Below, piece after piece: positions 5,185 to 31,800 of a stretch of DNA of 38,323 nt. Made by a program: the position numbers and the translations under genes. Source of the stretch: Fimicolochytrium jonesii (taxonomy: Eukaryota); the NCBI RefSeq assembly GCF_025526975.1, contig NW_026515689.1, forward strand, positions 496,001 through 534,323. The letters run 5' to 3'. Below the pieces are notes generated by a model. It was not told the DNA's origin. It searched no databases and saw only the letters and a list, made by a program, of their open reading frames with translations. Within the stretch, counting starts at the first letter, position 1; each line of letters opens with the position of its first letter.

Positions 5185-6135
5185 TCATGCGCGGTCCTTG
5201 TTCTTGTGGCACTTCTTGGGAGGAGTGGTGGGTTCGGCTGTTGGCTCAGCGGTAGGCTCAGCGGTAGGCTCAGCGGTGGGTTCAGCTGTAGGCTCGACGG
5301 TGGGCTCGGCAGTAGGCTCGGGGTTTTCCGTGGGCTCCTGAGTGGGCTCAGCGGTGTGGGTGGGCTTAGTGGAGGAATGTTCCTTGGTGGAGGAGTGGGC
5401 CTTGGTGGAGGAGGAGCGGGGCTTCCGTGTGGAGTGACCCGTCTGTGTGGTGACAGGGGGTACGGGGGCACCACCGCCAGAGACCTCGATCTTTTGAGCA
5501 CCGTTCTTGAAGGCATTCTTGTAAAGACGGCCTTCCTGGTTGTCGGAGGGGAAACCGGGGACGCCAAAGACGTGGTCGCGGAGCTTGATTCCACCGGTGA
5601 CGGTACCCTTCACGTCGGAGACGACCGAGCAGTCGAAGCAGTTCTCGTAGTACTCAGCGGCGGCGTTCTGGGGGTTGGGGATCCACGACCATGAGCAGAC
5701 GTATTCACCGGCGGGCAGGTTGGCGGGGATCTGGAAGGGGACTTTGCGTCCAAGGTCGGGGCACTTGGCGGCGACGGAGAAGACGGTGAAGTCGTCAATG
5801 GTGGGGTTTTGCTTGGAGGTGATAGACAGAGCGCATCCACCTCCACCGTGAAAACCGTTGATGTCGTTGGAGCAGATCTGGACGGCGTTGTCGGGGTTGC
5901 CGACGGCCTCACCACAGGTGACTGGAACAGAGAGAGTCTGACCAGCGCGAATCTGGAGCTTGCCCTTTCCGGTGTGAGGCTTTTGGCCGGCGCAGAACCA
6001 ATTCTTGGTGCCTTGGTTCAGAGGGTTCTCGAGTGACGTCTTGAGGCCCCAGACTGAAGGGTGGTTGAAGACTTGATGCGCCTGCGCACCAACCGTGAGA
6101 GCAGCCAAAGCAACGAGAGCAGTGCGGGCAACCAT
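5185..6135 (-). CDS. Secreted lytic polysaccharide monooxygenase-like protein (AA14-like) with a Thr/Glu/Pro-rich tail
   Basis: The signal peptide ends AQA and is followed by His1 (HQVFNHPSVWG). A second His in GFHGGGGCAL, then DFTVFSV..C, FQIPANLP, CSWSW and EYYENCFDC resemble recalled AA14 motifs. Confidence 0.75.
   Translation of the reverse strand: MVARTALVALAALTVGAQAHQVFNHPSVWGLKTSLENPLNQGTKNWFCAGQKPHTGKGKLQIRAGQTLSVPVTCGEAVGNPDNAVQICSNDINGFHGGGGCALSITSKQNPTIDDFTVFSVAAKCPDLGRKVPFQIPANLPAGEYVCSWSWIPNPQNAAAEYYENCFDCSVVSDVKGTVTGGIKLRDHVFGVPGFPSDNQEGRLYKNAFKNGAQKIEVSGGGAPVPPVTTQTGHSTRKPRSSSTKAHSSTKEHSSTKPTHTAEPTQEPTENPEPTAEPTVEPTAEPTAEPTAEPTAEPTAEPTTPPKKCHKNKDRA
5227..5355 (-). repeat. Coding 12-bp tandem repeat (TAEP)n in the LPMO linker
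   Basis: Units such as ggctcagcggta repeat. The protein reads PTAEPTVEPTAEPTAEPTAEPTAEPTAEP. Confidence 0.9.
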
Positions 6136-7446
6136 ATTGAAATAATCTGTTGTTGTAGGTAATGATAATGGGGAGGAAATAGAGTTAACGGTGAGCTTTG
6201 CGAGATGCGTCGTTCTCTTTATACCCCGCCCGGCCTAGCGACTGAGAGGCTTTCCCACTCTTGGCGAGGATCCGCCGAAAGTCGAGAAAGTTCTTTCACA
6301 CCGCCTCCCGATGAGGCGCTGCCCACACCGACGAGTACATGTGCATGTGCACACAGGACGCGGATTTAGAAGCGACCTTCGCTATCATACCGTGCACGGC
6401 GAGCCCGAGGGCTGACAAAACGGAGTTGACCAACGTACCTGCTGGGTATTACTGTTCTTGGATGTTAGGTGAGGTACAAGAGGCGGGGCGAGGCTGTCCG
6501 CTCTCTTTAATGCTTTTCGTGCCTGCCGCTGTCGATGACATGGTCATCACCGCCTTTCCTTTTCGCCTCTTCCGAGAGGTATCCGCCCCAAAGGCTACAA
6601 ACCACCTATGACCGTGCTGCGTACACAGGCTGCGGCTGGCTGGATCCCAAAGGAAGCGATGGGAGGTGATTATACCGCTTTCCTCCTTGTGGGAAAGCAG
6701 ACCAGCAACCACAACTTTGTTGGCGGTGCGCCCGCATGCAAAGCAAATTTCTCACCCATATGGCAAAATTTCGCTGATGTGGTTGTGCGCGGCGGATCAA
6801 ACTGTTTATGCCGGCAACTTCGACACATATTATCTTCCATTGTCCTGGTTCACGGAAGAGTCTTTGGGACCTGGTACTTGTCACAAGCGCCGCTCGTTCC
6901 GTCTAATAAAAGTCTGGTCGGCCGTAAGCGGCTCGTTTGGACGGCGGCGCGGTACGAGTACTACGAGACTACGAGGGCCACCCGAGTCCCGACTACCAGG
7001 AAGGACTGCATGGTTTTTGTATGGTTTTTGACGATTGATCAACACCGTGATTTTTTTGGCTGACGGGGATATCCACTTTCAATGACAATTCGGGGTCATT
7101 GATGGTCTGTCATTGTGCCATGTTGGCGACATATGCGATAGGGTGCCAACAACGCGTAGTGATCCTACCCCGCACGCGCTGTCGCTTTTTTGGTTTCCCT
7201 CCGCTCTGTCAAAACACCTTGAATTGAAAAAGCAGTCCAGGCACAGTCCAAGACAACTGCTAAAATCGGCTGTCGAATAAACATGGATGCCACTCTCTAT
7301 TTGTCGGAGCGAGTCCGAATCCGGCTTCCATATAAGTTGAGCTGGGTCTGCTGTCCCCCGGTGCAGGCCTCTCAAACTCACAACTCTGTCTGACTCGCCT
7401 GGCCACTTTCAAAGCGACCCCATAATTCCTACCCTCCCATACACAA

Positions 7447-9246: not shown

Positions 9247-9287
9247 AGTCCTCGGAAACTGTCAACAGCGGGTTGTGACAGGATTGC
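9247..9287. repeat. 41-bp direct repeat, copy 1
   Basis: agtcctcggaaactgtcaacagcgggttgtgacaggattgc, 40/41 identical to 11072-11112. Confidence 0.95.
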
Positions 9288-9840
9288 GTAACTTGAGCTG
9301 TCCAGCCAGGCGGCGATATTACTCGTAACAAAGTCAGATTGTTGTCAGACCCGTTTACAAACGTATGGCTTTCTGCAATGATTGTACGGAAACCACCGAC
9401 GAGCCCATACCCCACATAAGTGAAGTACTCGCGGGCCATTGTGTCTATCCTGTTGTATTTACGTGCGTGATAGATCTATCTACCCTTAAAACTTGGGCCG
9501 CACGGGGTTGTACTGTATCATGGCTTGACGAGCGTTTTACATGACTCTGCGACTTGCCACTTGTCGACGGTAGTGCAGGGAGAGTGGGTTGACTTGTGTA
9601 CTAGGTAATTCGAGATCAAAGAGAACTTGTCTGTTAGTATATATATAGGAGGTCCGCCATGTAAGAAATAAAAGATTATGTCTGGGAAAATTTCACCTGC
9701 TGTCTTCGCCTTTGACAGACGCCCGAATTGTTCTTCAGTAGCCATGACACAGGAGCTCTTAAGAGATGATGGAGCTTGTTTTCTATTCCTTTAAGAAAGT
9801 ACCTTTCTACGTACGTAGCACGGAATAGCAGCGAACCACA

Positions 9841-11056
9841 TCATCGAATGGGCTTGCTCATTCTGTCCATCTGATCCACCTTTTGTTTCCGTTTCACCAA
9901 GGCCTTGTGATCGAACTTTGCCAAAAAGTCTGCCATATGTGAATGCAGGCGGTCAAGCTCTTCCTGACGTTCACGCCTATTCTCTTCAATCTGGCGGCGA
10001 AGATGTCCGAATCTATCCTTTTCGAGTTGAGCTCCCAAAATTGACACATTTCCGTGGGATTCGGCGGCCGTGATAACAGGTGTGGTGGTCGACGATGAGT
10101 CTGCCCTGGAGCACAAGTGTTTCAGCGCTTCAATCGTCCAGTCTTTTCGCTGCCCAACAGCATCTGCATAAGCTTCTTGGACGGAATCGCTCCTGGCAAG
10201 AGCTTGGTCAAGTTTCGCCTCGAGGTCGTCAATTTTTATCAATATCGGCGTGATGTAAGTAGCGAGGCCAGGCCGAATTGAAAACAGTGTCCGTGCGATG
10301 GTAGCCAACCAGAAACTTCTTGATACCAGGACCGAGGGCTATGATTGTTGGGACTGGGGACATTCGCCCACTGCGTACGTCTGGCTCCACGGTTGAACCA
10401 GACATGCCCCATACCTTCGAGGCCTTTGAATGCCCGGAGGTCAAAGTCAGGATGGAATCGCCAGGGTTTGAACCCCGTTTTATGCTCAATGGTATCCAGT
10501 CTCTGCTGTTCGATGTGTCGCAGTGTTGACGGACTGGGTTTGTAGAGGGTTCACGTGGAATGGAGGGCTTTTTCATTGGTGTCTTGTGCTTCTTCGATTG
10601 GAGGGTATCTCCCTCTTGAATTCCATGGCTTGACGGCGATGTAATAAATCGGTGATAAATATTTATGTCCAAGAAAGTCCCACAAATCGCATTGTCCTGT
10701 GGAAAATGCACTGCAAATAGTGGGCGGAACTCCATGCGGTACATGTTGGAGGACGCTCCAGTTATCTCCACTTTCCCATCAACTGCGTGCTGTCGCAGAC
10801 TGTCTCTGTACCCCAGCTCCACTGTTGTTGTCCCAGCTTTCACCCGGAGCTTTAGCTCTCGTGCTTCAACATTCAACCCTCTTTGTGGCCCTGCACTGTA
10901 AGGCGATGTGTGGAACTGAAGCGCCGTGCCAACGTAGAAGTTCTTACCGTAAAACTGTGTAATGAGCGGGGTGCCCTGCTTCATATAGTTTGCCACATTC
11001 ATGCGAAGGCGGTTCATTGCCGCGCTTACCAGTGGGGACGCTATTATTCGGAGCAA
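9841..11056 (-). pseudogene. Degenerate Fanzor2/TnpB-like nuclease remnant
   Basis: IIALGPGIKKFLVGY resembles the RuvC-I motif ALDPG..FL.GY with D>G (GAT>GGT). A frameshift near 10280 continues FSIRPGLATYITPILIKIDDLEAKL...KDWTIEALKHLCSRAD. No RuvC-II, RuvC-III or zinc finger was recognised. Confidence 0.55.
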
Positions 11057-11071
11057 GTCACAGGAGGGCGG

Positions 11072-11112
11072 AGTCCTCAGAAACTGTCAACAGCGGGTTG
11101 TGACAGGATTGC
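11072..11112. repeat. 41-bp direct repeat, copy 2
   Basis: agtcctcagaaactgtcaacagcgggttgtgacaggattgc. Confidence 0.95.
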
Positions 11113-14242: not shown

Positions 14243-15517
14243 ATGGATATGGATTACGGCTCTGCCCAGTGGCAGATGCTTAATCAGCAAACGGGAGAAT
14301 CGAGCCCCTTCACTGGCCCGGCCGGCGCCATGAAGAAGGATCTGCCTACATTAGGTACGTTGCTTGTCCGTTGAACTCCCTAGAGTGCCTACACTTACGC
14401 TCTCTGTTCGTTAGCCTTCGACCCCATAAGCCCAACGTCCAATGCCTTCTTCATATCTCCGCAGGCGGAGGGAACACACGGCATGCAGGCCCCTCTGTTT
14501 GGGAATGTCCCTGACCATTCGATCTTCAGTACCCGACACTTTCGATCAAACAGCATTTTTGGACTTTCTCCACCCGGTTCTGAATTTGGCGGTTTCTTTC
14601 CACATCAGTGGCCCCATGATGAGAATGTGGAGGGCAGGGAACTCATGGCTACGGAAGGGAGTCCGATGTTTGCACCCCACGATCTGGATACAGGCTCCTT
14701 TGGTGGCGACGCGGCTGCGTCCGCCGCGGTCACTGCAGCCCAAAAGCTTGTCGATCAACATCATGCGATCTCCCAGATACGGGAAGCTCAGCGGAAGACA
14801 TCCATGGTCGACCTGATTCCTGAAATCAATGTGAAAGTGGACAGCTTGGACAAGCTCACAAAAGCCGAGCGCAAGAAGATTAGGGAGAATACGCGGAATC
14901 TCAACTGCTTCAACTGTGGCACGCGTCGTACTCCCCTCTGGAGGCGGACAGCAGATCGATTGCACAACCTTTGCAATGCTTGCGGTTGGTAGTGTTTGCT
15001 GGCTTCGCCGGGACTTCTAGATACTAAAATATTGCGGTCCATAGGGCTGTACCACAAACAATACGGCTTCCATCGCCCAGCCACGATCCGCCAAAAGACA
15101 TCATCCGCAGTCGAGCTGAGCATCGTCTCTACAGCTAACGGCACTGATTATGCGGTTGTCATGCCAAGTGCAGCGGCTTTGCGGAAAGACGGAGGACAAG
15201 CTACGGTCAAGGTTGTGTCCATTGGCAGCCTCACAAAGGGAAGGAAGCGCAAGCTTTCGGTCCCACATCATGTTCGGAGCCCCGCGGACGAAGGTACGAC
15301 GCAAGTCAAATCCGAAGACATCGCCGACACCTCATGCGAGGGACGCCGTGAAGATGAAGAAGTTCGTGAAGGATCGCCTCCCTACGAGCATGAGGTTGAC
15401 CTCGGACAGTTTCAAACCCAACTTCAATCCATGGGCAAAGGAGATGTACGGAGGTTACTCGGGTCGATGGAGAGCCAAATCGCTGTCCTTCGAGAGTACA
15501 TATCATCCAATGAATAA
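14243..15517 (+). CDS. GATA zinc-finger transcription factor. Exons 14243-14354, 14415-14984, 15045-15517
   Basis: CFNCGTRRTPLWRRTADRLHNLCNACG|LYHKQYGFHRP (C-x2-C-x18-C-x2-C) is rebuilt across a GT-AG intron. Confidence 0.9.
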
Positions 15518-15990: not shown

Positions 15991-18858
15991 ATGAGCCGTC
16001 TAGAGAGTCGTCGGCGACAACGTCGCGAGGAAGCGACAGACTCCTCGGAGGACGATACCAGCATCGGTTCCGTTACTGACGATTCCGCTGACGAACTCGA
16101 AATTACCAGCGATTCGGAAGTAGAATCTGTATCGAAAGCACATAAGAACGTAGATGCGAAGGAAGTTATTTCGAAGCCAGCGGTGGCAAAGCACAACAAA
16201 GCAGTGACCGTGCGCGGTGGCACCGATAAGAAACCGTCAGCTGTAAAGAGTGCGAATGCCCCTGCCGCTGCGGGTGTTAACAATAAGGGACGCAAAGCTC
16301 AATTAAAACCATCCGCCAAATCTCCGGTCGCTCCTGCCGATACGACATCCGATGAAGCCGAAACGGTAGTCGAATACAACGACATTGCTCAACCGCAAAT
16401 TATCACCGAATCTACAAAGTCCGCTGCTGTCACATTTACCGCATCAGCGAAGGCCGCATCAAACTCGCGCGACACTAAATGGGCCAGCGCGCCTTCCTAC
16501 GCTAAACGGCAGCAAGAGCAAGAGGAGTACCGCCGCAAGCTCAAAGAAGACCCAGCATTCACTCCCAATGTCGGCAAATTCTGGGGTCACGACGATCGTT
16601 TCTCCGGACGCGGCGGATCCCGCGGTTTCCGTGGCAGCAGCCGTGGCCGTGGCTGGGCTTACGCCAACCGCCCGGTCATTGCTCCGCCGCGGGACTCCCA
16701 TTACCAACATCAACAGCATCGCACGCAAGATCAAGCATACCACACAGCGAGCGCCAATACCGTCAGCGGCCGTCAAGGTGCAATATCCCCAAAGAGCGAC
16801 GGCTTCGCCATGAACCACACGGCATCGGATCCTGCAAAGGACTTGATGAACAAGACGTGGGTCCACGATAAGTTTGAGGAGGTTTCCAAGGATACCAGGC
16901 CTTATGGGAAGTACAACGGTCCGGCGAAGCACCAAACCCGTCCCCAAACTGAAAGCCGACAATTGCCTCCAGCCCGGCCATCACCTACCAACCGGCAGTC
17001 ACCGGGAAGTCGCTTGAACACTGCCACTGCAACGGTTGTGCAGAAACCTCAAACCTCTATCGCCGCTGCCGACAAACCAGTCGAAAGCCAAGTGACTTCC
17101 AAGGTCCCCGTGGTTGTCGCCAAGGTTGCTGCTCCGCAGACAAACCAGAAGGTGGCACCGCCGCAACCTGAAGTCGAGCGAGTATCATTTACAATCGGCG
17201 CCCACGCAGTGACTATTGTAAAACAGAAATCGACGCCAGACCTCAACGCGGCTCCAGCTCAGAAGCCAACTACTCCTGCGATCGACCACACTGTGAAGCC
17301 GTCCGTGACAAACCCCGACAATGCGATTGCCAAGCCGACGGCATCAAAGCGGGCTACTACACAGCCTTCCCCTCCTGCCGTAAATCCCGTACCAACAATG
17401 AACGCACGTGCCATCAGTTCCGCGCACACCGGTCGCAGCAACGAAGGCGATATTGCCAAGATGCAAAGCAACGAGGCCGTTACCAAGGACTTTGACACTG
17501 CTACTACAGGCGCCCCACCGGCTGCAGTTGTGTCGCAAGACACGGCGGCGCCTCGTACAACCAAGCGCTACCTGGGTTCTGCGACTTTGCAGCAGACCAG
17601 CCCAGTTGCACCTGCCGAACAGCAGCAAATTCCTGCAGCTGAGACCAAGTCACGCACGGCTGATTCCCAATCACCGAAGGAATCTACTCAATCGCCGACG
17701 GACCTCAAGGAAGCCCCGACCTCGTCAACTAAATCTCCCACGGGAACGATGTCGCCTACGCCTGGACAGAGATCCCCGGTCGGAACCCACATTCAAGGCG
17801 CGAAACATACAACTTCTTACTCTGCTCGTGAACCAACAGCGCACGCTGGACCGGTCAACCATCGTGAATTCAACACATACCATCCGTCGTCTGCATTCAG
17901 CTCGTTATCCGCTCAAGGGACTGACGCACCAGCGATCAATCGTGGCCCGAAGTCGTCGCCGCGCAAGCGCCACAATAAACCGCGACCACTTCCCAACAGC
18001 TCAAGTCCACAGCTGTACGCGGATCATCAACAGCTGGTCCAATATGACGGGTCGCCGACATACCCGGTGTACACAAGCGCGGACAACTACCCTATTTATA
18101 CAACCGCGCCCGCATATCCGACATTCACCAGCGCTGCCGCAGCTTCGATGCTTCCTTACGTGCCTTCGGAGGAGGCCATGGCGAACGGAGAATCGCAGAT
18201 GCCGCAAGTTCCTCACATGCAACCGATAATGACCAATTCGGGGTCATTTGTGTTTATGACCGAGTCAGGACTCATGGTGCCCGGGGACAATTACAGTCCA
18301 ACATACGGGTACCCCGGTCCATACCCTCAGTATGCCGGGTACGCGGCCGACGGATCACAACCCCAAGGGCCGATCCAGTCTGGGTACGCACCAGGTGTTG
18401 ATGCAAATGGGTATTACGCGCAACAGCACCCACAGCCAATGTACTTCAGCGGCCCACCAATGTACCATGACCCCGCTTCGGGCATGGTGATGGTATCCGC
18501 GCCATACTATCCGCCGCCAATGTTCCATCACCAGATGGGGGGGTCAACGGGGCCTTACATGCCCCACATGCACGCGCCGCATAATATCATGCCCTACCAG
18601 CACGTCAACCCGAATAGCACAGTGACACCACGAATCACCGAACTTGACGTGAATGGCAATGGGAACGGAAGTGGTCGGCATCGTCACCACCACAACCACC
18701 GCTATCAGCATCATCAACACGCGCAAAACTTCGGGGACAGCACGTACAAACATGCGAACAACACATACGGTCAGCAACAGAACGGGTACAACCCAAAAGT
18801 GCAGATTCGTCGGCCGGACTCGGGAGAAGCGGTCGATGTTAGCCAGCTGAGCGCTTGA
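15991..18858 (+). CDS. Btz/CASC3 (Barentsz) eIF4AIII-binding domain protein
   Basis: EDPAFTPNVGKFWGHDDR and WVHDKFEE match the two-part Btz motif. There is an RGG segment and a Pro/Tyr/Gln-rich C-terminus. ATG 15991 lies in the long ORF. Confidence 0.8.
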   Translation: MSRLESRRRQRREEATDSSEDDTSIGSVTDDSADELEITSDSEVESVSKAHKNVDAKEVISKPAVAKHNKAVTVRGGTDKKPSAVKSANAPAAAGVNNKGRKAQLKPSAKSPVAPADTTSDEAETVVEYNDIAQPQIITESTKSAAVTFTASAKAASNSRDTKWASAPSYAKRQQEQEEYRRKLKEDPAFTPNVGKFWGHDDRFSGRGGSRGFRGSSRGRGWAYANRPVIAPPRDSHYQHQQHRTQDQAYHTASANTVSGRQGAISPKSDGFAMNHTASDPAKDLMNKTWVHDKFEEVSKDTRPYGKYNGPAKHQTRPQTESRQLPPARPSPTNRQSPGSRLNTATATVVQKPQTSIAAADKPVESQVTSKVPVVVAKVAAPQTNQKVAPPQPEVERVSFTIGAHAVTIVKQKSTPDLNAAPAQKPTTPAIDHTVKPSVTNPDNAIAKPTASKRATTQPSPPAVNPVPTMNARAISSAHTGRSNEGDIAKMQSNEAVTKDFDTATTGAPPAAVVSQDTAAPRTTKRYLGSATLQQTSPVAPAEQQQIPAAETKSRTADSQSPKESTQSPTDLKEAPTSSTKSPTGTMSPTPGQRSPVGTHIQGAKHTTSYSAREPTAHAGPVNHREFNTYHPSSAFSSLSAQGTDAPAINRGPKSSPRKRHNKPRPLPNSSSPQLYADHQQLVQYDGSPTYPVYTSADNYPIYTTAPAYPTFTSAAAASMLPYVPSEEAMANGESQMPQVPHMQPIMTNSGSFVFMTESGLMVPGDNYSPTYGYPGPYPQYAGYAADGSQPQGPIQSGYAPGVDANGYYAQQHPQPMYFSGPPMYHDPASGMVMVSAPYYPPPMFHHQMGGSTGPYMPHMHAPHNIMPYQHVNPNSTVTPRITELDVNGNGNGSGRHRHHHNHRYQHHQHAQNFGDSTYKHANNTYGQQQNGYNPKVQIRRPDSGEAVDVSQLSA

Positions 18859-19844
18859 TTAGGAAAAGATATATGGGATTGGAGATATTTTTGTGGCTTT
18901 CTGTTATCAAGCTAGTTAGTCTTGCCTTTTTTTGATGTCAGAGAGTAGTGTGGCCATGGTGGGGAAGTCTTCATGGAATGGGTGGGAGAGATGTGTCTTT
19001 ATAAACACTGCTTTGTATCAGACTTATTAAAGCCTGCGCAACGCTCACGTGATGAAACCCACGTGATGGAACGCTCTCTCGGACGCTCTTTTGGCCACCT
19101 ACTGTAATTGCACTCTGATAACACTGGCGCTTTGGCACAGTTGAATCTTGCTCTCCCTGCAGACGTGCAGGTCGCGAGTTCAATTCCCACTCCCAGACAA
19201 CTTCTTCTTTGTTTGTTCAGATTATGACCCCTGTCGCACTTGGTGCGGCGTGGTAACTACTGTCGCGCTCGGCGCTTCGGGGGTGTTAACTGAACAGCAG
19301 CACACCTAAGTATCACAACAGAAAGCAACCTTACCCGCTCTCAAACAGCTCGACCCACGACCATTTTTCCTCGCGCTCCTTTTGCTGTTATTCCTCCCGG
19401 TTCACATCACACAGCTCCATCACATCACACAGCTCCATCTCGATGGGGATCTGGGGAAATCACCAACATCGCTCTTGGAGTCCAATTCGGTTCAGTTCAC
19501 AATGGTCAAGCCTTGCCCTTCAACCCGAGCCGTTCAGCGGCGACGGTTGGGTTCTCAACGCAGCACCCGCAGCAGCACTCCCAGGCGCAACCTTGCAGCT
19601 TCCTCGAACAGTAACGGCGGCGATGGCAGTGGAGCGAACGGCGACGGCGACAGTGGTGCCAACGGCAATGGCAGTGACAATGGTGCCAACGGCAACGGAA
19701 GTGACCATGGTGCAAACGGGAGGCGACGGCGCGAACGGCAATGGCAACGGCGCGAGCGGCAATGGCGTGCCCGACCGTAGCGACGTCGAGGACATCTTGG
19801 CTGTGAGCTAGCTCATCGGCCATAGCTCATCGGCCGGAGCTCGA

Positions 19845-19922
19845 CAACCGTAGAGCCTGTCAACTGTAGAGCTTGTCAACTGTAGAGCTTGTCAACTGTA
19901 GAGCTCGTCAACGGGAGCTTGT
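19845..19922. repeat. 16-bp tandem repeat, about 5 copies
   Basis: Unit caactgtagagcttgt with minor variants. Confidence 0.9.
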
Positions 19923-20243
19923 TGAGGGGTTCTAGACCGGAAGTGTGAAGCGTGATCACCAGGCCGTTGAGTTCCCCCGATATTGTTGATTTTCAGTTCC
20001 TGCAAAGTGGGTGAGATGAGTATCTATCCGCAAATAGCTGGGTAGATACCGGTATACCCGCCCTGCACATACCGGTATATTTCACTAGGGCTGTGTCGCA
20101 GACGCGACGTGTTGTTCCCCAGGTAGACTGGACACTCCGCATTACGGCAGATGACAGTGGCAGCGGTGCCAACGGCGGCTCAAACTTCAGCGTCAGCGGG
20201 TGCATTGCATCAACATGTCCATCTCCAACACCGAATCCATCTG

Positions 20244-20266
20244 TAACCCTAACCCTAACCCTAACC
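20244..20266. repeat. Telomere-like (TAACCC)n, about 4 copies
   Basis: taaccctaaccctaaccctaacc. Confidence 0.85.
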
Positions 20267-20850
20267 AGGTCCAGCGGTGCTTGAGATGCTCGCCAACGGC
20301 AAACCCGTCCACGAAGGTGGATTCGCCGCAGGTGCCGTTGTTGTGGTAGAGGATGTGCATTGAAGGAGACTGTGGGGAACGACGGGGTGGGTCAATGGGG
20401 TGCCATGTCGGGTTGCCAAGCTTGCCCTCCAACTTTGCCCACTCCCTTCAGCCGCCGTGCGTTCCCTTTATCAGCCGCCCTCTCTGTTCTCTCTGTTGCT
20501 TTTCCCACTCCCTCCAAGTTCCCCGCGCTCCCACTCGCTCGCTGGCCACCCTTTTTCCCACTCTCCCTTTTTCCCACTCGCTCGCTGGCCACCCTTTCTC
20601 CCACTCACCTCTTGGTCTCTATATCGTTCGACCCTGCGGCCTATTTTACTCAATGCGCACTGCTGATGGCGCAAACCACGCGCCAGCCACGGCGCTGAGA
20701 GCGTGAAGCTGTATATGTAAGGCCAAGCGTGAAGGGTGTAAGGCTGAGCGCGATTCTGAGCGCGATTATATCTGCAATGTACTGTAAATGTACATACGTA
20801 CATACTCCGCTGAGCTGTCGAATATCCAGTGCTGTCAGTGCCATACCCCT

Positions 20851-20925
20851 GCTTCCCCCCATTCCCATAAGCAAGCGTAGCTTCCCCCCATTCCCATAAG
20901 CAAGCGTACGTAGCTTCCCCCCATT
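20851..20925. repeat. 29-bp tandem repeat, about 2.5 copies
   Basis: gcttccccccattcccataagcaagcgta repeated. Confidence 0.9.
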
Positions 20926-21426
20926 GGCTGGGCCTTTTTCTTCCCTGGGACGAGCCACACTCTGTATCGCACAAAACACATGGACATTCATATATCAAGA
21001 CGCCGTTGAGTGGGGAGGACGGAGGCCCTTCTCTCCTTCCCAACCTGCTTCCCAACCCCCTTCCTTCCTAACGCAATTGCAAACACCTCTGTACCGTACA
21101 CATCCCGCCGACCACCTCCAGGTAACAACAGCAATCCCTTACCCCGCCGCCATCCCTCACACTACCTAAAACAGATCAATCTAACCTCCCTGCACAGCAC
21201 AGCACAGCACAGCCAACATGTCATCACACCAAGCGCTCCAGGGGTACCTGTGGTGTGGCATATTTACTGGAGCAACCACACCACGGCGGAAGAGGAGGAA
21301 GGTTGCTCCGGTTACCCCACCCCGCGGTTGCCCATACGTCTGCCAACTGTGCAGACACCTTTGCAACCCCCGCGATTCCAGTTCCCACCGTCTGTCCAAC
21401 GCCACTTGCCCGAAGCCATTGCAGAC

Positions 21427-24400
21427 ATGGTCAGCGAGAGTTCCGGCAATGAAGACGGGCAACAGCACCAGCAGCAGCAAGGGCTTTCACCCGTGGACAG
21501 GGGTCTGCAGCGCCCACTGAACCTCCCCGCGCCCATCCCTTTCCGTTTTCCCAGCACACCGGGTGGATCCCTGGTGTATGAACCCCCGCCACCACCACCA
21601 CCACCAGTTCAACGACCCCGCCCGCAAACACATGCCAGCACCAAGGTTTCGCTTCACCGAATCATCCATAATCAAAATCAAGTTCAAAGGGAGCGCCTGG
21701 CAACGTTCATCGCCGATGTTCACGTCCTTGCGCGCCACACCACCTTCTTTATCAAGTACTACCTTGGTGAGTTTTTGAGGTACACTATACTGTATATTTC
21801 CCATAAAGCAATGTCCTGACTGCTACATCTGCCCACCCCACCACAGCTGATCATCCTCTACACGAGTTCCCGGACATCACCGACAAGCACATTAGTGTGA
21901 TATTTGAGCTGCTAAACAATCCAGGCTACAACGGCAATCCGGTCATCGCGCAAGAGTTGCGTCCACGGGTTCAAGAGTACTGTAATGTTCACGGATTCGC
22001 CCCCATCCGCATGCAAAATAGCCAACAGACCGCAGCGTACACAGCTACGAGCATCTTCACCAACCTCAAAGTCAACGTACAGGAGCATTCTATGCAAATG
22101 TTTCTGCGCTATGTCAATGAAAGGCTTGGTTTGAAGCAAGTCGTACTGCATCTTCGGAGAGCCGGAGTTAGCCAAGCGCAGCGCCAACAGTATTATCGGC
22201 GTGTCCGTCAATTCACAAAGTACGCGACATTGGAAGAGTACCCAACTGAAGAGGAGTTTGCCCGCCTCACGCGACTTGAGCGGACTCTCCTTGACAAGTT
22301 ATGGGCTCTGTTTCCTCCCCAGGATGAGCCCCTTGCGTACAGCCTTGCGGTGGACGCAATGCCATATTTAGGTGAGTTGCATCCTGTATATTTATCCCCC
22401 CCCCCCCCCCCCCGCCTCCAGCTCGTGCGTGGCTGCGAAGCGACGCAAGCGAGCGCCTCGCTTGGTACGCCGAACTGGCCGAATGGCTGCGCGCTGGGGC
22501 CGACAGGAAGCGAACCCCCCCACCCCCGCCCTCCCTCCCCCCCCCCCCCCCTCCAGCTCGTGCGTGGCTGCGAAGCGACGCGAGCAAGCGCCTCGCTTGG
22601 TATGCCGAACTGGCCGAATGGCTGCACGCCGGGGCCGACTGGAAGCGAACCCCCCCTCCCCCCCCCCCCCCTCCCTCCAGCTTGTGCGTGGCTGGGAAGC
22701 GACGCAAGCGAGCCTTGCTTGGTACGCCGAACTGGGCAAATGGCTGCGCGCCGGGACCCAGGCCGACGTGGTCCCCCCCCCCCGGCCGAGAGGAAGCGGA
22801 ACCCCCCCCCCCCCCGCTTCCTCTCTTGTCTAATCATGGTCTGCACCTGCCTCCTCATAGGCACCTACTGTGAGCTCTCGCACCTCTATGAGCGCCGTGG
22901 AATGCGCCTGTTTCCTGCTATCCCGCTGCGCAAATCTCGAATCCAGTCATCTGTTCTGATTGACACGAAGATCCTAACCACTCATATCCTGGCCTTGGGC
23001 CACCATCACATGGGGAAACTTACCGATGAACGCAAGCGGGAGCTGTGGGGGCAGTTTCTCAATGTGAATGTAAGTTAAGTCTGTAGCCCTCTGCGCTTAT
23101 TTCAATCACCTCGCTGAATGACGATTGCAGGACACGGTCTTCAAGGATCGAAAGAAGCTTGGTCTCAAATTTGATGGGTCAATCAGCACAAACGGGTATT
23201 CCGCTACCATCCACTTCAAGAAGCCAGGGCTCAAGTACGGCCATCGCGCTCGGAAGCGCAGCAAAGCCGAAATGCAGGAAGAAGTCCAGCAGCTGTATTT
23301 TGAGCACCACATCGCCCAACTAAGGGAGGCTCCAAACATCGTCTGCAGTGATCCGGGCAAGCGTGACCTCTTGTTCTGTCGAGACATCAAGAAGGAGCGG
23401 CCATTTCGGTACGTTTCAGTTGATTACTACTGCCCTGCTGTCCCGGCTACCCACCCCCCCCCCCCGTCTCCGCCCGCCAGCCCCCCCTCTCCGCCCGCCA
23501 GCCCCCCGTCTCCACCCGCCAGCCCCCCGTCTCCACCCGCCAGCCCCCCGTCTCCACCTGCCAGCCCCCCGTCTCCACCCGCCAGCCCCCCATCTCCGCC
23601 CGCCAGCCCCCCGTCTCCGCCTGCCAGCCCCCCGTCTCCGCCATCCCCGTTGCGGCGACATTCCGTTGCAGCGTCCTCACAATGCACCACCCCATATCAG
23701 ATACACGTCCAATCAACGGGCGGTCGAGACAAAGTCTCGGTACTTTCAAAGAGACATGAGAGAGCAAAAGATCAATGCCGGCATCGCTGAGATGGAATCA
23801 CATATTCCATTGCACAAGAGCATGAACATCGAGGCGTTCTCAGCGTTCATCGTGGATTACGAACACACGGGTATGATGTTCCACTTCAACTTTGATTTTC
23901 AACTTTGGTAATACATGGGCTGACATCCATATCCCAGATCCCGCCCTGGATGAGTTTTACCAGGATGAGATTCATGTAGCTTGCAGATTCAAGGCGTTCT
24001 CACTGCGGCAAAAGTCTGAGAGCAAGCTCATCAAGAACATGCGACACCTGTATGGAAAGCATTTTGCGGCCATCTTGGGTGATTGGAGCGACGCTGGAAA
24101 GACCATGCGCTTTCAGGAGTCATCAAAGACCAAAGGGTGAGTGACTATCATTGGTAATATGTATTACAGTATGCCATCATGGAAATCAGATTTCGCACAC
24201 TCTTTGCAAGAAACAGCATTCCATGCTACTTGCTGGATGAGTATCGAACGTCGTCCGTGTGCCCCGACTGCCACGGCCGTGTGAAGAAAAACATCCGTCA
24301 GCGGCTGTCATCTCGGCCATGGCAAGCTAGAAAGGGAAGAATGGAATACGTCCATGGATTGGTGGGTTGCCCCAACCCCGAATGTATCAACCAAGACTGG

Positions 24401-24553
24401 ACACCATATGAGATTCCTGGAAGACGACCACTACGACTACGGATGAGAGTGCACAATCGGGACATCCTGAGCACCAAGAATTTCCTCTCGATTGTGCGTT
24501 CGGTGGTGTTTGGCAATGGCCGCAGACCAGACGCATTCTCCCGTAACCGGTAG
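21427..24553 (+). CDS. Fanzor1 RNA-guided DNA endonuclease, 694 aa from ATG 21427. Exons 21427-21766, 21847-22371, 22861-23069, 23131-23408, 23701-23870, 23938-24136, 24190-24553
   Basis: Six GT-AG introns splice to 2085 nt with no internal stop. RuvC-I CSDPGKRDLL, GDWSDAG..RFQESSKTKG, RuvC-II LDEYRTSSVCPDC, zinc finger CPDC/CPNPEC and RuvC-III HNRDILSTKNF are present. NLKVNVQEH and RYTSNQRAVET match my recollection of SpuFz1. Confidence 0.93.
22396..22815. repeat. Three copies of a 124-135-bp GC-rich unit separated by poly-C tracts, in Fanzor intron 2
   Basis: Units starting ctccagct(c/t)gtgcgtggctg at 22416, 22551 and 22675. Confidence 0.95.
23464..23642. repeat. 21-bp minisatellite, about 8.5 copies, in Fanzor intron 4
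   Basis: Unit ccgtctcc(g/a)cccgccagcccc. Confidence 0.95.
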
Positions 24554-24665
24554 TCTAGATTTCACCCCATCCCATTTTCCGTGGTGGTTATCTGCCATCC
24601 ACATCATTGTACCTCTGCCTGAGGCGTCGCCGATGAAGGCAACTTGTATGTAGCATGCCTCACTC
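24554..24665 (+). ncRNA. Candidate Fanzor omegaRNA scaffold region
   Basis: Lies directly after the Fanzor stop, where such RNAs are encoded. It has a hairpin at 24581-24602 and a tgaggc/gcctca stem at 24620-24662. Ends are not defined. Confidence 0.45.
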
Positions 24666-24797
24666 AAAAAGCGACAGCGCGGCGCGTACCTAAGATGATG
24701 CCAAATGCGCAAGTTCGCGGTTTCCACTTCGTCCTCGGGCCTTGCTGAACACAACATCCGTGATCAACACCCAGAACCTCGATCAACAAACAACAAA

Positions 24798-25605
24798 ATG
24801 GGCGACAGGAAAGCCAAAATGGAGGCGCTTGCCGCAAAGCGTCGAGCTGCAGAGGAAGAAGAGGAGAAGCCAAGGTTGGAACCGAATGCTACGCCAAGTG
24901 ATCTTCCAGTCCCTCGGGGGTGTTCCGACACTAACTTCCGCGATCTTAAAGTACGAAGGCAGCAACGAAATCGAAAGGATCGGCCGCGACAGCAAAGCCA
25001 AAACCGAAAGTCACTGATGAGCGCTCTGCCAAAGCTCGTGAGGAGGAGTTTGCAAAGAAGGAGCGTGAGCTGTCCAAGCACAAGAACCTTGACCAGTACG
25101 ATAACGAGGACGGATTCCTGGTCGATGATGAGGAGGAAGAAGGTATGGGGGAGCATACGAAAGTTATCAAGTTAGTATCATGACTATAGTCTGACTAAGA
25201 TACTCCGGAATAATGTTGAAGAGGACGATGCCGGAAGCGAATCTCCCTCTGAAGACGAGGAGGAAGAGGAACGACCAAAGAAGCGGAAGGCGAAGGACGT
25301 AAAGCCATCAAAAAGCTCCGGCAAAGCTTCTAGCAAGCAACCACCGGCCAAAAAGAAGAAGAAGGCTGAAAGCGACGATGAGGGTTCTGGTGGTGACGAA
25401 CCTGATGAAATCTCTGGTAGGAAACTGACTCGACTGGCGCGCATGGAAAGCGATGACAACTAACGTCTCTTTCCTCTCTCTAGATGACGACCTCCTGGAA
25501 GGTTTGGACACATCGGATATCCTGCCTGACCGTGGACGTCGTACCCGTGGCGTTAAGATCGATTACACGAAGTTCGGCCCTGATGATGAAGATGATGACG
25601 AATGA
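24798..25605 (+). CDS. Acidic/basic nuclear protein with a C-terminal CHZ motif (Chz1/HIRIP3-like histone chaperone). Exons 24798-24874, 24952-25142, 25222-25416, 25484-25605
   Basis: The spliced frame is open. The C-terminus reads DDLLEGLDTSDILPDRGRRTRGVKIDYTKF. NLS-like PAKKKKK. Confidence 0.7.
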
Positions 25606-25865: not shown

Positions 25866-28800
25866 TCAATCCTCCTCGTTAACCTCGAACAACAGCTCTG
25901 TGGACGGCGGCATGCGTGTCTTCTTGATTTCCTTCGTCGGCTTGTCTTTCGATGGCAAACCACTCTGTGATTTCTCCTTCCCAACCTCCTTTTCCTTCTC
26001 CTTTTCTTTCTGTTTCTCCTTCGTGGTATCCTTCTCCTTGTCGCTACCGTCTTTCCGGCTTCCAAAAATGCCTCTCCCAGGAAATTTGTTATGCCGGGCA
26101 GGTGGAGCTTGCAAAGTAGCATTACCATGTTCGTCTGAAGCCGTGCTCGGTTTCCGCTTGACGAAGAGCTTCTCTCTAACTAGCGCTCCGGTGTTTGCCA
26201 GGACCGCCCGGAGTGCCTCTGTGGGGGTTCGAAAGTATTCCTTCAGAACACTTTCGCTAATTCTGTTCCGAATGACCAAAACGCACCTTTCTTTACAGCG
26301 TCCAAGAAGTCAAGCCACGTCCAAGTCTTGTTGCGAAACTCGAGCGTTGGCATTTTGAACGCGAACATGTACAAATCCTCAATGTTTTTCTCTTTCGACC
26401 CCTGATGATAATGGCAAAGTAAGAACTTCGGCCCCATTTGTCATCACCAGAACGAACCGGAATGAACGCGGATGAGGTGCTTACCCGATAACTCAAACAA
26501 TGATTGGCTCCGGGCATCTTGATGTAGATGAACGATCGATTTTCCGAGGCTCTGGCTTGCATTTGTTTGAGTTCATTCACTCGCGTCTCCTTTCGTCGCA
26601 ATTTCGGAGACGACGACGCCTCCTCCTTGGTCTCGCTTTTACTGCTGAGGGTTCTCCCGTGACTGTATGAGAAAGTCCCGCTCTTAAACCGTCGCTTTCT
26701 CTCAGTCTGGGGAGACATATCGGGCTCCGATGGTGAACTCGGTCGAAGCTTGTCATCAACCACAGCTACATTATCGGCGCTCGTGGAGGAAACTCTTCGC
26801 AAACTGAGGTCTGAAACGGAAGAACGAGAGCTTCTGTTCGCGATTTGATCCGCAGATTCGGAGCGGGGGAATCTTCGGTTCTGCTTATCGTCACTGGTAT
26901 TATGCAACTGCTGAGCATGGGTTTTCGCGGCGGCCTTGGCTTTCTTCTCCGGAAAGAGATAAAACACAATCTCCTTCGCCATATCGTAAGTTACTTGGAT
27001 GAGAAGGGGATATATGTTGACTTCGAAGTGATCGACCACTTTGATGCCAGCAACAGGTGCCATCTGACGCCAGTATACGCGAATCATCTTGTGCCGGGTG
27101 AAGTCCACATCAGTCATGTCGGGCGAATAAGGCGCAATGACCTCCTTGAAGGAGTTCATAGCCGACATATGGTTCTCCAGATGAAGCTTGTCGATATGAA
27201 GCGTGTTGACGTCCGTCTGATCCTCGTGATGGACCCCACCAAACTGCGCTTTATCAAGCGTCCATTCACAGAGGGGCGTTTGCTCGTCAGTCAGCATACA
27301 CCAGACCATCTTGCCCATCTTGATCAAGATTTCAGAAGAGATCGCCGCTGATTTCTTCTTCTGTTCTAGCGATTGCGTTGCTTTGATGGCATCGACGACA
27401 ATGATCAACTCATCCTGGCACTGCAGCAAATGACGAAGAATCTCCGCATTCCGATGGGAAGAGGCTCCGACTGTCAACCCACTGTTGTCCATATCGGTGT
27501 GCAGCATAGCTTCCGTCTGCCTGATCTTCTGCTGAAGTAGCAAGACCGTCTCTTGCACTTTCCGCAAATCCTCCATCTGCTCCAAGATGAGTAGCATCTT
27601 GGTCATCTTCTCCACCTGTTCGCCTCGTCCTGGGTCTCGATACACCAGAAGGTTCTCGATAACGTCATATATGACCATATATTGCATAGCGGTGGCGGTT
27701 ATGAAGAATGTCGGGATGTTGATCTGCAGGGTGTGCTTTGTCTCCGGCTGGGTGCTCGCTACATCGCCTTTCAAGTACAAAGGATTAGGGACGTCGCGAT
27801 GAAGACTCGCAGAAACGCGTTCGACCACCCGCTCGAGGAATCCCGGATGCGATGAGTGATCTGCAATGCATTCTATTGGGACCCAAATGGGCCAGGCAGC
27901 CGCCGTCGGGGTATCTGATTTGTCCCAAGGTTGATGCATGGCAATATTGTCCAAATCGAATTCAGGGGCGACTTCAATGTCGGTCTTGCGAGCAACGAAA
28001 AGTTGGGCGTCATAAATATTCACCACCATTCGGGATTTGACGATCTCTTCATTCCTATCGCTGTTCTCATCGGCGGTCGATGAAGTACTGGCTTGGGCGT
28101 CCAGAATGCGGATCGAACGCAGTTGCATGCTTTCCGCGGCAAGCACGACTGATTCGAGATGTGACGGATTGTCCTTTGATTCAGCTTCAAGGTTGACTTG
28201 TGGGTACACGAGCTGCATCATAAAATTGCTTTCATACGTTTGCGAGTCGGAGATGTAGTCCGGCGATTCAATGTCCCTCGAGGGAAAGTACACTTTGCGA
28301 TTGTTGAAGGCAAGCGCAGCCCCTCGATTGTTGGACTCTGCCGCATCGTCATCCTGCTCCACTTCTGTTTCATTGGAGACAAAGAACGCCGTATCCATCT
28401 CGTCCACAAGTTTGTTGAGCAAACGATGTGCTGCATTTGCGTCGAGCTCGGCGAAAACCATGCTTGATTTTGGAGCTGGTGCTGTCTTTGCCGTATCTGC
28501 CAGAACATCATGAGCAGTCTCCGGCGCATCGGTACGATTTCTCCGCTCCGCAAAGGACGTAACAAGTTGCGCCATCAATTTCGTTGCCGTATGGGACAGA
28601 CAGAACTTGATCGCCATGGCCTTTTGCTGCAACGAAACCATTTGGAACAAAATGTTGCGCACATCTTTCTTCCAAATCAAGTTGAGATTGTGGACCACAA
28701 AGTGATGTTGGAAAACAGCCGCCGCGGGAAGCTTGCGCTCGGCTCTGCCCGCCGCTTTGTCGCCCACATTGTCGCATTCCAGTTTCTGCTGACACGAGCG

Positions 28801-31800
28801 AATATAACGCTCAATCACGACCTTTTTCTCGTGCAGTATGGCCATTTTCTCAACAATGATCTGCGACTGCTGCCGCAACGAGTCGTCAAAGAAGACAGCC
28901 ATACGGTATTCCAGACCACGCTGCATTTCGAGATAATGACGAATCGCCGCTTCAATCTCCCGCAGTCGGCTCTTGAACAGATGCTTCTGCACCTCGAAAA
29001 TATCCTTCTTAGACCGTGTGCTATCCTGCGCGCCGGATACCTTCGTGTCGTTCGATTTAGTGTAGATGATTTTGGGCGTCCAAGCAAACGGAACGAGGTT
29101 CAAAGTCGGTCTCTTTTTTCGAAGCGCGTCGCGTGGAAAGATCCAGTCCTTATCATCACTGGCCCCTGGCTGATCGAGCTCGTCCACTGATAGAGGCTTT
29201 TCCAACGTGGCAGGACGTGCTTCGCTGAAGTCCCCAAATGCTAAAGCCCTAGCTTCCACATCTGTCAATTCGAGCTCAGAGTCGCGCAAAATCCATTTGC
29301 TCGTGGGTTTCCGCTTGAGAAGCTCCTCTTTGGGCCGTCGCTGCTGAATCACCCTCTGCAATAATGTCATATCCATGACGACTTGCGCGGCGCGACACCT
29401 CAGCCCCACGCCGAGGCTCTTATCCTGCGCCTCGGCAACGAAGCCGAGCAGTAAGGGATGTAGCGACGTTTGAATCCTGATGGAGCCGATTGTGCGACCC
29501 AGTTTTTGCTTTGAAGGGCCTGGGCCGTCCTCCTGGAATAGCTTCCCCTTCCGTACCGGTAAGCTTGTCAGAACTGACTGATAAACTTGCAGGAAGGTGA
29601 AAAAACGAGACATGGTGTTTAGAGTGAGATGGACCGAGTTGGAAGGCTCGGAGAGGCCGGCGTAGAATGGTTTGGGCGACTCTAAGCGGACGGTAATGTT
29701 GATGCTGCTGGACCGGAATCCTCGGAAAGAGTCCCACTATAGCCAGAGACGGTTATCAAACTCTCTTCGTCCCAAGTCGTACATGTAGAGAAACGCACCT
29801 TTCGCAATTGATCCGAGTCGATGTATTCCGGAGCTCTCAAACAAATGTCCGCATGGCTCTTTACTAAACCACTCGCAGGATCTCTCCTATTCCTTTCCGT
29901 GACAAAGCCAAACCCGAACACCAGTCGAACCCCGCCCCTCATCCTCGCAACAGTGTCCTCCTCCTTTGCCCGATGATGATGCCCTGCGCGCGCATTGAAA
30001 GGGAGCGCAAAGCCCAATTCGCCGCATTCGATCGTCACGTCCTCGCCCGGAATTTGACTGCCGTTGACCTCGATTCGAACCCCGTCTCGCATCGAGACCT
30101 GCATGCCTTCGGTGCCAAAATGCTTGTGGCCATCGAAGTACGGAGAAGTGGAGCCGAGGACACGGAAGCTGATGTCACCGCCCCCCGTGATGATCAAGGT
30201 GTGCGTGCCGTGCATAATCAGTCGGAGCTTATCCCACCAACCTAGCGGTTGGCTAGGATCCACGTTTGGCTTGGTGAACGTGTCGAATACGCTAATCATA
30301 TCGGATATACCAGGTTCTAACGACGCTCCCCACGCTGCATGTATCGTAGACGACGTGGTAATGGTAGTTGTCAAGGAGCTGTACATTTTGTTCGGGTTAA
30401 CAGTTCGTGCAACGACAACCTCCTCTCCCGTGGGTAGGCCGACCGGTATCACGACTGTGCGGTTTGCTTCGGCGGCGGAGACCTGCTCTGCGAAGATGAC
30501 CAGCCCCTTCGTTTCCAGCTTTACACTCCCGTCTGCCGGTAAGCACACGAGAGGCGCCGAGTAGTCTCTAATCTGCATCTTCAGGGAGTGCATGCTGATG
30601 GTCACGTTCCGGGGAATCTGCTCGTCGTACAGAGCGTTTGCTGGCGTTGCGGGATCAATAATATGCAGCGTCTGCTCGATCGAGTTCGCTAACAAAACAG
30701 GTGGATCTATAGCTACTTGTATGTTGGTGATGGTGGTGTGCATAAGCGGCGGGGGCCCTTCAGTTTCCTTATGGGCTTTCCGCAAACGGTCGATCCACGC
30801 CCTAGCATTGAACTCCTGCAAGAGCCCCCAGGCGTTCTCGACCGCAGTTGATTGCTTATGCTCGTCATGCACAGAACCTCGTCTCCTTTCATCAACCGAG
30901 CGCAAAGCCGCGGCTTTAGTCTGAAAGGCCTTGTCGCGGGCTATACGTCCTTCCTGCTCTTCGAACCCCAATAAGTAGTTCCGTGACAGTGCGGATTCGA
31001 ATGGGTCATCTGCGAAGCGTATACAGAGCGTGGAGATTTGCACCCTGATGATGGGTATCGTGTCGTAGATTGGTATCGAATGGCCTGTCGTGCTTGGTGT
31101 TTTCAGCCGAAGCCCGAGCTCTGCGGCACAAAGCCGTTTGATGGCCTTCTGCATACTGATGGCATTCTCAATCACCTTGGCCATTTTGAAGCCATATGGT
31201 ACTCGTACTTCTGCAGACATGACCTCAGCTTCGACTTTCGTGGCCGACGTGCCGGGAGGTTTGCGGCACTCAACAGTCAATTCGGTGACTTGTGTCAAGC
31301 GTTCGTATATGAGCTGCTCTTCGTCTGTAAGGACATCGACGGTGGCCAGTTGTGTTTGCGCTCGCACAAGGAGTCCTTCGCCGGTGTCGATGAATATTGG
31401 TTGTATGCCTACACGCAGGTGGACATGGCCCGGCAGCGTGATGTCGACCAGCAAGCTTTGGACTTCCACATGAACGACCGGCGATTTTGTTCCGATTTCT
31501 TTTCCTTTGTTCTTCTCAGTTTTTTCGATATCCAGCAGTTTCACGAGCTTCCAGCAGTATATCGACGCCATCAAGGTAACGTAGAACATCCGCAAACTGA
31601 AGCAAACTACGACCTCATCCAAGCGCAACGTGAGCTCGTTTCGGTCCGTCGCGCCAAACTCGCGCACATGGAGCATTTCAATCCGACGAATCCGGAGGGA
31701 AGATTCCGTGTCAAGTCCATTTGACATGGCCTCCTGCTTGGCAAAGTACGGCTCCTCCGTAGAATAGAATGTCCCAGTAGTGTGAACACCGATATCCTGC

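Follow-up and report, generated by a model that had tools for sequence, protein, structure and literature searches.

A Fanzor1 gene with six introns, close to SpuFz1, in Fimicolochytrium jonesii: one of dozens of copies and probably in decay

The locus and its gene model

The window, i.e. the whole stretch of DNA analysed (38,323 nt of contig NW_026515689.1 in the Fimicolochytrium jonesii assembly GCF_025526975.1), contains a spliced nuclease gene with a predicted RNA feature behind it, set among host genes that form an ordinary fungal context (Table 1). The eukaryotic setting is apparent from the spliceosomal introns, from the Btz, CHZ, Hobbit and GATA neighbours and from the nearest proteins, which come from a chytrid; an exact look-up of three neighbouring ORFs of the window found none. 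Elsewhere in the window, about 1.9 kb at 9247-11112 lie between 41-nt direct repeats (9247-9287 and 11072-11112; 98% identical) and hold broken minus-strand ORFs. The stretch IIALGPGIKKFLVGY within this interval we take, by eye, to resemble a degenerate first RuvC motif of the TnpB/Fanzor2 type, and Pfam, homologue, PDB and atlas searches gave nothing convincing.

An earlier note on this DNA had proposed seven exons joined through GT-AG sites into a stop-free protein of 694 aa, and this model (2085 nt; 21427-24553, + strand) is borne out. Only two of 96 nearby donor/acceptor combinations leave the frame open, giving 692 and 694 aa, of which the 692-aa variant was set aside as the alignment to SpuFz1 is gap-free for the 694-aa form. 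GTGAGT serves as donor three times and GTAAGT, GTACGT and GTATGA once each, with CAG or TAG as acceptor in all six introns. Every one of the six junctions is gap-free against SpuFz1, which is encoded by a single ORF, and against the metagenomic relative L001, which has two introns elsewhere, so that the splice model is supported by homology; judged from the sequence, the seven-exon, 694-aa model is real. The intron density of the gene, 2.9 per kb of coding sequence, can be set beside Fanzor densities of up to ~9.6 per kb, reported from introns predicted with AUGUSTUS and Spaln (PMC10530073). Minisatellites have enlarged introns 2 and 4 (22398-22789, unit 135 nt; 23460-23642, unit 21 nt), and a sister copy, P0023, seems to have another repeat in intron 4, hence the arrays may vary among copies.

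Table 1. Features of the Fanzor1 gene and its surroundings (positions in the window)
Feature	Position	Strand	Remarks
AA14-like monooxygenase with PT-repeat tail	5185-6234	-	host gene
GATA factor	14384-15517		host gene
Btz/CASC3	15991-18858		host gene
Family start and 100-codon frame	21218-21520	+	first 34 codons match sister N-termini, then the frame shifts
NLS-like basic motif PRRKRRKV	21281-21304	+	out of frame with the nuclease here; 12 sisters have RRKRRK at residue 23
5-nt tandem duplication (ACCCC twice)	21314-21323	+	shifts the frame
Exon 1, from internal Met	21427-21766	+	aa 1-113; low-complexity linker, then the folded part begins
Intron 1	21767-21846	+	80 nt, GTGAGT..CAG; intron-derived peptide in sister P0085
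Exon 2	21847-22371	+	aa 114-288, REC region; TAM-contact equivalents Q173, Q174, A177; F195S codon 22089-22091
Intron 2	22372-22860	+	489 nt; about three 135-nt repeats inside
Exon 3	22861-23069	+	aa 289-358; H336 at the place of SpuFz1 R291
Intron 3	23070-23130	+	61 nt, GTAAGT..CAG
Exon 4	23131-23408	+	aa 359-450; catalytic D432 at 23350-23352, I431S just before it
Intron 4	23409-23700	+	292 nt; 21-nt minisatellite, 8.7 copies; intron-derived peptides in P0023, P0011
Exon 5	23701-23870	+	aa 451-507; identical in P0001
Intron 5	23871-23937	+	67 nt; intron-derived peptide in P0030
Exon 6	23938-24136	+	aa 508-573; identical in P0001
Intron 6	24137-24189	+	53 nt, GTGAGT..CAG
Exon 7	24190-24553	+	aa 574-694; E591 at 24239-24241, four-Cys zinc finger, D665 at 24461-24463, stop
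Candidate omegaRNA scaffold	24574-24652	+	predicted; TTCC, stem-loop 1 (24581-24602), linker, stem 2 from 24608
Candidate guide, ~15 nt after the scaffold	24649-24667	+	from flanking host DNA; placed by the SpuFz1 layout, start +/- 4 nt
CHZ-domain histone chaperone	24798-25605	+	host gene directly downstream, outside the element
Hobbit/FMP27	26293-29736	-	host gene

A Fanzor1 close to SpuFz1

The Fanzor1 layout and the closeness to SpuFz1 of Spizellomyces punctatus, which the earlier note had named, were both confirmed by alignment. Single exons of the window gene match SpuFz1 (PDB 8gkh) at E 1.5e-20 (exon 2), 1.4e-14 (exon 4) and 1.1e-29 (exon 7), and the sister protein P0012 does so at E 1.5e-133. 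The motifs pointed out before are present as a RuvC triad of D432 (DPGKRD), E591 (DEYRTS, the Glu lying just before the zinc finger) and D665 (NRD), together with the four zinc-finger cysteines C598, C601, C634 and C639, and all seven catalytic and zinc-binding residues are kept. The triad corresponds, when counted by hand with a fusion offset of 394, to the catalytic residues D383/E541/D606 of SpuFz1 (PMC11423790, PMC10432273). Structure prediction, which had been proposed as a check, supports the assignment for a sister, P0050, rather than for the window protein itself: the AlphaFold2 model (pLDDT 82.5; residues 1-125 disordered, with pLDDT < 50 up to about residue 125) matches 8gkh in Foldseek at E 5e-51, with a TM-score of 0.90 by target length and ~42% identity over the folded part, and its best structural matches are SpuFz1 first, then PpFz1 and GtFz1. 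A FastTree phylogeny of 26 sequences unites the F. jonesii family with S. punctatus, L001 and Phlyctochytrium arcticum at a support of 0.99. Pfam scans contributed little, the six exon ORFs giving weak matches only (best relevant, Cas12f1-like_TNB, E 0.037) and full-length P0050 matching 0 families, and no relative of P0050 was found among the viral contigs searched. The gene is a Fanzor1 close to SpuFz1, and the RNA-guided, TAM-dependent cleavage of double-stranded DNA known for Fanzor1 would, by family assignment, be expected of its intact form.

Comparison with described systems places the gene more precisely. SpuFz1 and its element SPu-1 share with it the D-E-D triad, residues Q129/Q130/Y345 and, measured on the folded part of sister P0050, ~42% identity, as well as a two-stem RNA candidate that is equal in size and follows closely on the stop codon, a large number of similar copies and the lack of a transposase beside the gene (PMC10432273, PMC3627910). 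SPu-1, however, is a single ORF in an element of ~2.1 kb with 30-33-bp inverted repeats (PMC3627910, PMC10432273), whereas the window gene has six introns and no such repeats that could be detected, and differs from SpuFz1 further in that its low-complexity N-terminus is longer and 11 aa are inserted before NRD. The intron-containing Fanzor1 genes of the CrFNuc type resemble it in having spliceosomal introns and an N-terminal NLS, to which the NLS-like motif of the F. jonesii family may be compared, but CrFNuc is carried by Helitron2 elements whose ends are defined (PMC10530073), and no such ends were found at the window gene.

The nearest orthologues are in the same clade with S. punctatus, at 39-42% identity. 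L001 carries, at 511-2900, a Fanzor1 frame that is open over 717 aa after removal of two introns (1235-1293 and 2575-2638), with a basic N-terminus, the triad and, at 2831-2896, an omegaRNA-like fold of the same two-stem layout; apparently intact, this locus may suit testing better than the window copy does. In P. arcticum, six Fanzor1 models of 489-693 aa form one 90% cluster (P0055), which is another young family; a literature search naming both Fanzor1 and Phlyctochytrium arcticum found no paper. The two introns of L001 stand at other positions and it has none of the six described here, so that the distribution, with none in SPu-1, two in L001 and six others in the window gene, suggests repeated intron gain within one clade of transposon genes.

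SpuFz1 reads its CATA TAM through R96, Q129, Q130, N133, R291 and Y345 (PMC10432273), and three of these six contacts (Q129, Q130 and Y345) are kept in the window model. Ala stands at the N133 position in each of the five F. jonesii rows given in the diverse alignment, the loop that carries R96 is five residues shorter than in SpuFz1 and is without the Arg, and the R291 equivalent is His in the window and varies among 14 sisters (R in eight, H in four, Q in one, C in one). These changed contacts make a TAM other than CATA likely, as far as it can be predicted from the residues, and the suggestion of the earlier note that the enzyme has its own TAM is thus plausible, as a prediction.

The candidate omegaRNA and the ends of the element

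The scaffold candidate starts 20 nt past the Fanzor stop, and its second stem ends in TA at 24648 or 24652. Stem-loop 1, which has 7-8 base pairs and a single bulge, is more stable than most shuffled sequences (z -2.97; 2 of 200 shuffles as good), whereas the full scaffold is no more stable than its shuffled versions (z -1.4 to -1.5; 12 and 21 of 200 as good). A descriptor of the two-stem layout, which was written after both candidates had been seen, finds a single match when run over both strands of the window and a single one in L001; in either case the match follows closely on the stop codon of the Fanzor gene. The scaffold of SpuFz1 is 75 nt long and has a two-stem layout (PMC10432273). 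The predicted fold and its place suggest that 24574-24652 is likely an omegaRNA of this same layout, and that it is likely the right end of the element; the candidate guide would then lie ~130 nt before the start of the CHZ gene. Rfam gave 0 matches over 18800-25000, and nothing could be learnt from aligning the two 3' regions pairwise as DNA. Of 18 named omegaRNA nucleotides (PMC10432273), 10 are found at 24574, but 219 positions in the window reach at least 10 and two nearby registers tie, and this comparison was not taken as support.

The left end is less clear. No terminal inverted repeats of the SPu-1 kind (30-33 bp, with a TA duplication) are present, the best 30-nt inverted match in the window having 12 mismatches, and neither the window nor L001 has terminal repeats beyond chance. 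The best short inverted match (12/13 nt) was judged to be at chance level, as were a CATA at 20801 and a 7-nt inverted match to the right end, both of which were rejected. Neither a left end nor a target-site duplication was found in the window. No transposase was detected in it, the four upstream ORFs being without Pfam match. A Helitron2-type element would be marked by short asymmetric inverted repeats, terminal hairpins and a RepHel gene; the window showed no significant repeat, and the same four ORFs had no Pfam match. The tandem repeats cluster at 19402-23642, from which the element may reach back to ~19.3 kb. The region 19290-21000, which may form the 5' part of the element, is of low complexity and rich in tandem repeats (units of 14, 16, 18, 21, 27, 29 and 43 nt). 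TAACCC recurs in a short run at ~20246-20266, and the Gly/Asn-rich ORF beginning at 19502 looks frameshifted. For the upstream ORF at 19502-19777, no homologue was found among longer proteins.

A family of dozens and the state of this copy

All 13 matches of a protein search were F. jonesii models, nine of them spanning the whole last exon at 88-100%. With cluster members included, the family comprises 50 named gene models on 29 contigs that differ in length, some of the models being split parts of one locus, for which reason the copy number is given as ‘dozens’; three cluster members, P0020, P0033 and P0037, were dropped as unrelated sequences. Mean pairwise identity is 92% over aa 470-675 (31 sequences), and all seven catalytic and zinc residues are kept in 20 of the 22 sequences that span the triad, the window model counted. 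Peptides derived from introns 1, 2, 4 and 5 occur in sister models, showing that the copies keep their introns and have therefore spread as DNA. P0001 (KAI8818442.1) is identical to residues 408-694 of the window model. Another model, P0017, shares the downstream CHZ gene (222/222 residues identical) and has a C-terminal half identical to the window model, but differs from it in an in-frame N-terminus, in F195 and at several other N-terminal positions; it is an allele or a segmental duplicate of the window copy and looks as if it had its own frame break near residue 150.

The earlier note had also held that the gene was hidden from ORF-only mining and probably uncharacterised, and here the picture is divided. 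Table S2 of PMC10711439, a list of Fanzor HMM hits, names F. jonesii in 33 rows, KAI8818442.1 among them, and spliced models of the family are present in NCBI/UniRef; since introns in Fanzor genes are described as well (PMC10530073), neither the introns nor the family was hidden. The Table S2 entries are, however, protein hits only, no full gene model, RNA, element ends or activity being found with them, and a term search of the main text of PMC10711439 found neither F. jonesii nor introns mentioned. The genus was not found in the readable supplements of PMC10530073 and PMC10432273, the former of which also lacks Spizellomyces and may not carry names. Literature searches on Fanzor introns, SpuFz1, Fimicolochytrium and ortholog mining found no study of, and no experimental work on, the F. 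jonesii family. ‘Uncharacterised’ thus stands with regard to experiment, and the family appears to be uncharacterised and catalogued in part.

The description of this copy as intact does not hold, as the Met encoded by ATG 21427 is internal to the family protein. In twelve sister models the start lies 65-70 codons before it and the frame is kept through the basic motif, one other (P0051) being called from the internal Met. The family start at 21218 lies 209 nt upstream of ATG 21427, and in the window its frame ends at a stop (21518-21520) after 100 codons because ACCCC is duplicated at 21314-21323. The shifted-frame peptide is absent from all stored sister models, and splices that would rejoin the frame with the motif kept need non-consensus donors, e.g. 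GTTGCT or GTTACC. The window copy has no uninterrupted frame from the family start through the basic motif, and so is not intact; the frameshift itself could be an assembly error. That PRRKRRKV acts as an NLS is suggested by its composition and place: basic N-terminal clusters also occur in the S. punctatus, P. arcticum and L001 orthologues, and 21 of 22 predicted N-terminal Fanzor NLS were functional (PMC10530073).

The protein sequence has also changed, with 56 of 692 positions differing from the sister majority. At position 195, Ser is seen in 0/10 sisters and 0/57 diverse homologues, 54 of the 57 having F, Y, L or V (F195S). At position 431, Ser occurs in one of 25 sisters, the near-twin P0017, and in 0/57 diverse homologues, of which 47 have I or V (I431S); it is also in P0001, and as P0001 and P0017 are on contigs that differ in length, its presence in two annotated models points to a copied or allelic variant. 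I431S adjoins the catalytic Asp on its strand and would presumably be destabilising. The other two changes are V552A, where 55 of the 57 diverse homologues have I, V, L or F and none has A, and K360T, where 44 have K or R and one has T. Together with the 5' frameshift, which removes the NLS-like N-terminus, these four substitutions weaken the claim that the gene is potentially active.

Across the family, changes seen in a single copy fall on L001-conserved sites about as often as they would in the absence of selection (81/205 against 44%, p 0.18), and those common to at least three copies fall there less often (13/58, p 0.0008; Fisher p 0.02). The test covered 40 models and the window model, nine of 49 models having been dropped (two near-twins and seven with mis-spliced stretches), and is a protein-level rather than a codon-level pattern, to which gene-model errors add noise. 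As a pattern in sequences it fits a protein that would be kept functional in spreading lineages, with copies decaying after insertion. Nineteen of the 56 differences from the sister majority are readable as CpG transitions, and the coding CpG o/e is 0.89 in the window copy against 1.14 and 1.11 in two host ORFs; with two host ORFs as the comparison, this hints at methylation-driven decay.

The reading preferred here, to which a probability of about 0.7 is given, is that the gene is a Fanzor1 with six introns that belongs with SpuFz1 and is followed by a predicted omegaRNA, and that this copy, out of dozens in F. jonesii, is likely decaying. The main alternative is that the window copy is a working nuclease, made as 694 aa from ATG 21427 (or in full, if the duplication is an assembly error), tolerant of F195S and I431S and nuclear by way of an internal basic patch or a partner. 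It would account for a frame that is open over six introns with triad and zinc finger whole, and for the C-terminal 287 aa being identical in P0001 and nearly all of P0017; P0051 is called from the same Met, ATG 21427 is flanked by a purine (-3) and a G (+4), an internal KRSK lies at 400, and the lost N-terminus is predicted to be disordered and outside the folded enzyme. ATG 21218, however, also has a purine at -3 and opens a frame that overlaps 21427, only non-consensus donors would splice round the duplication with the motif kept, and the four substitutions bring in residues that are all but absent from the diverse homologues at those positions, which makes a working copy unlikely, if still worth considering. 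That the family no longer moves as a transposon, its element ends lost and its copies owed to segmental duplication, gene conversion or domestication, would agree with the lack of a terminal inverted repeat or transposase in the window and with P0017, which shares the CHZ gene yet has several N-terminal differences, but is improbable given models on 29 contigs that differ in length, flanks that differ (P0041 is fused to another neighbour, with a CUE domain), many lesions among the copies rather than one conserved orthologue, and other Fanzor loci known without inverted repeats (PMC10432273).

On the preferred reading of a mobile family with this copy in decay, the family gene would be transcribed and spliced from ATG 21218, and the N-terminal basic motif would carry the protein into the nucleus, where it may bind an RNA of ~90 nt made up of the right end of the element and ~15 nt of flank. 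The DNA cut would be that in which this flank adjoins a TAM, which is the insertion site in its element-free form, and the element would be retained when the break is repaired from the occupied copy, a homing role that is a hypothesis even for SpuFz1, borrowed from TnpB and raised as a possibility in the discussion of PMC10432273. Copies would spread as DNA, moved by a transposase supplied in trans, as none is seen in the window. In the window copy, translation from 21218 would end after 100 codons, and the 694-aa form would need leaky scanning and would come without the N-terminal motif and with F195S and I431S. The copy is probably decaying and likely damaged, and intact sisters would be the better candidates for an editing tool.

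Enzyme class, introns and NLS are already known, and the surprise is modest; what appears new, on sequence evidence, is the omegaRNA-like fold, the changed TAM residues, six introns not shared with the orthologues and the lack of a detectable terminal inverted repeat or transposase. A wider proposal, held tentatively and at slightly under even odds, is that the family, recently amplified and lacking terminal inverted repeats, acquired six introns of its own during its spread as DNA, that intact copies (e.g. P0050 and P0007) are active nucleases with a non-CATA TAM and a predicted scaffold of 75-79 nt, and that variation at the R291 site may give copies different TAMs. Characterised Fanzor1 enzymes are few, with SpuFz1 as the main scaffold for editing. 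A new target range could reasonably be sought with a relative at 42% identity whose TAM contacts have changed and for which an RNA scaffold is predicted, provided that an intact sister is used. The value lies in the family, with its candidate new TAM, predicted scaffold and lineage-specific introns, and its dozens of copies, each with its own flank-derived guide, could help to test what Fanzors do for their elements.
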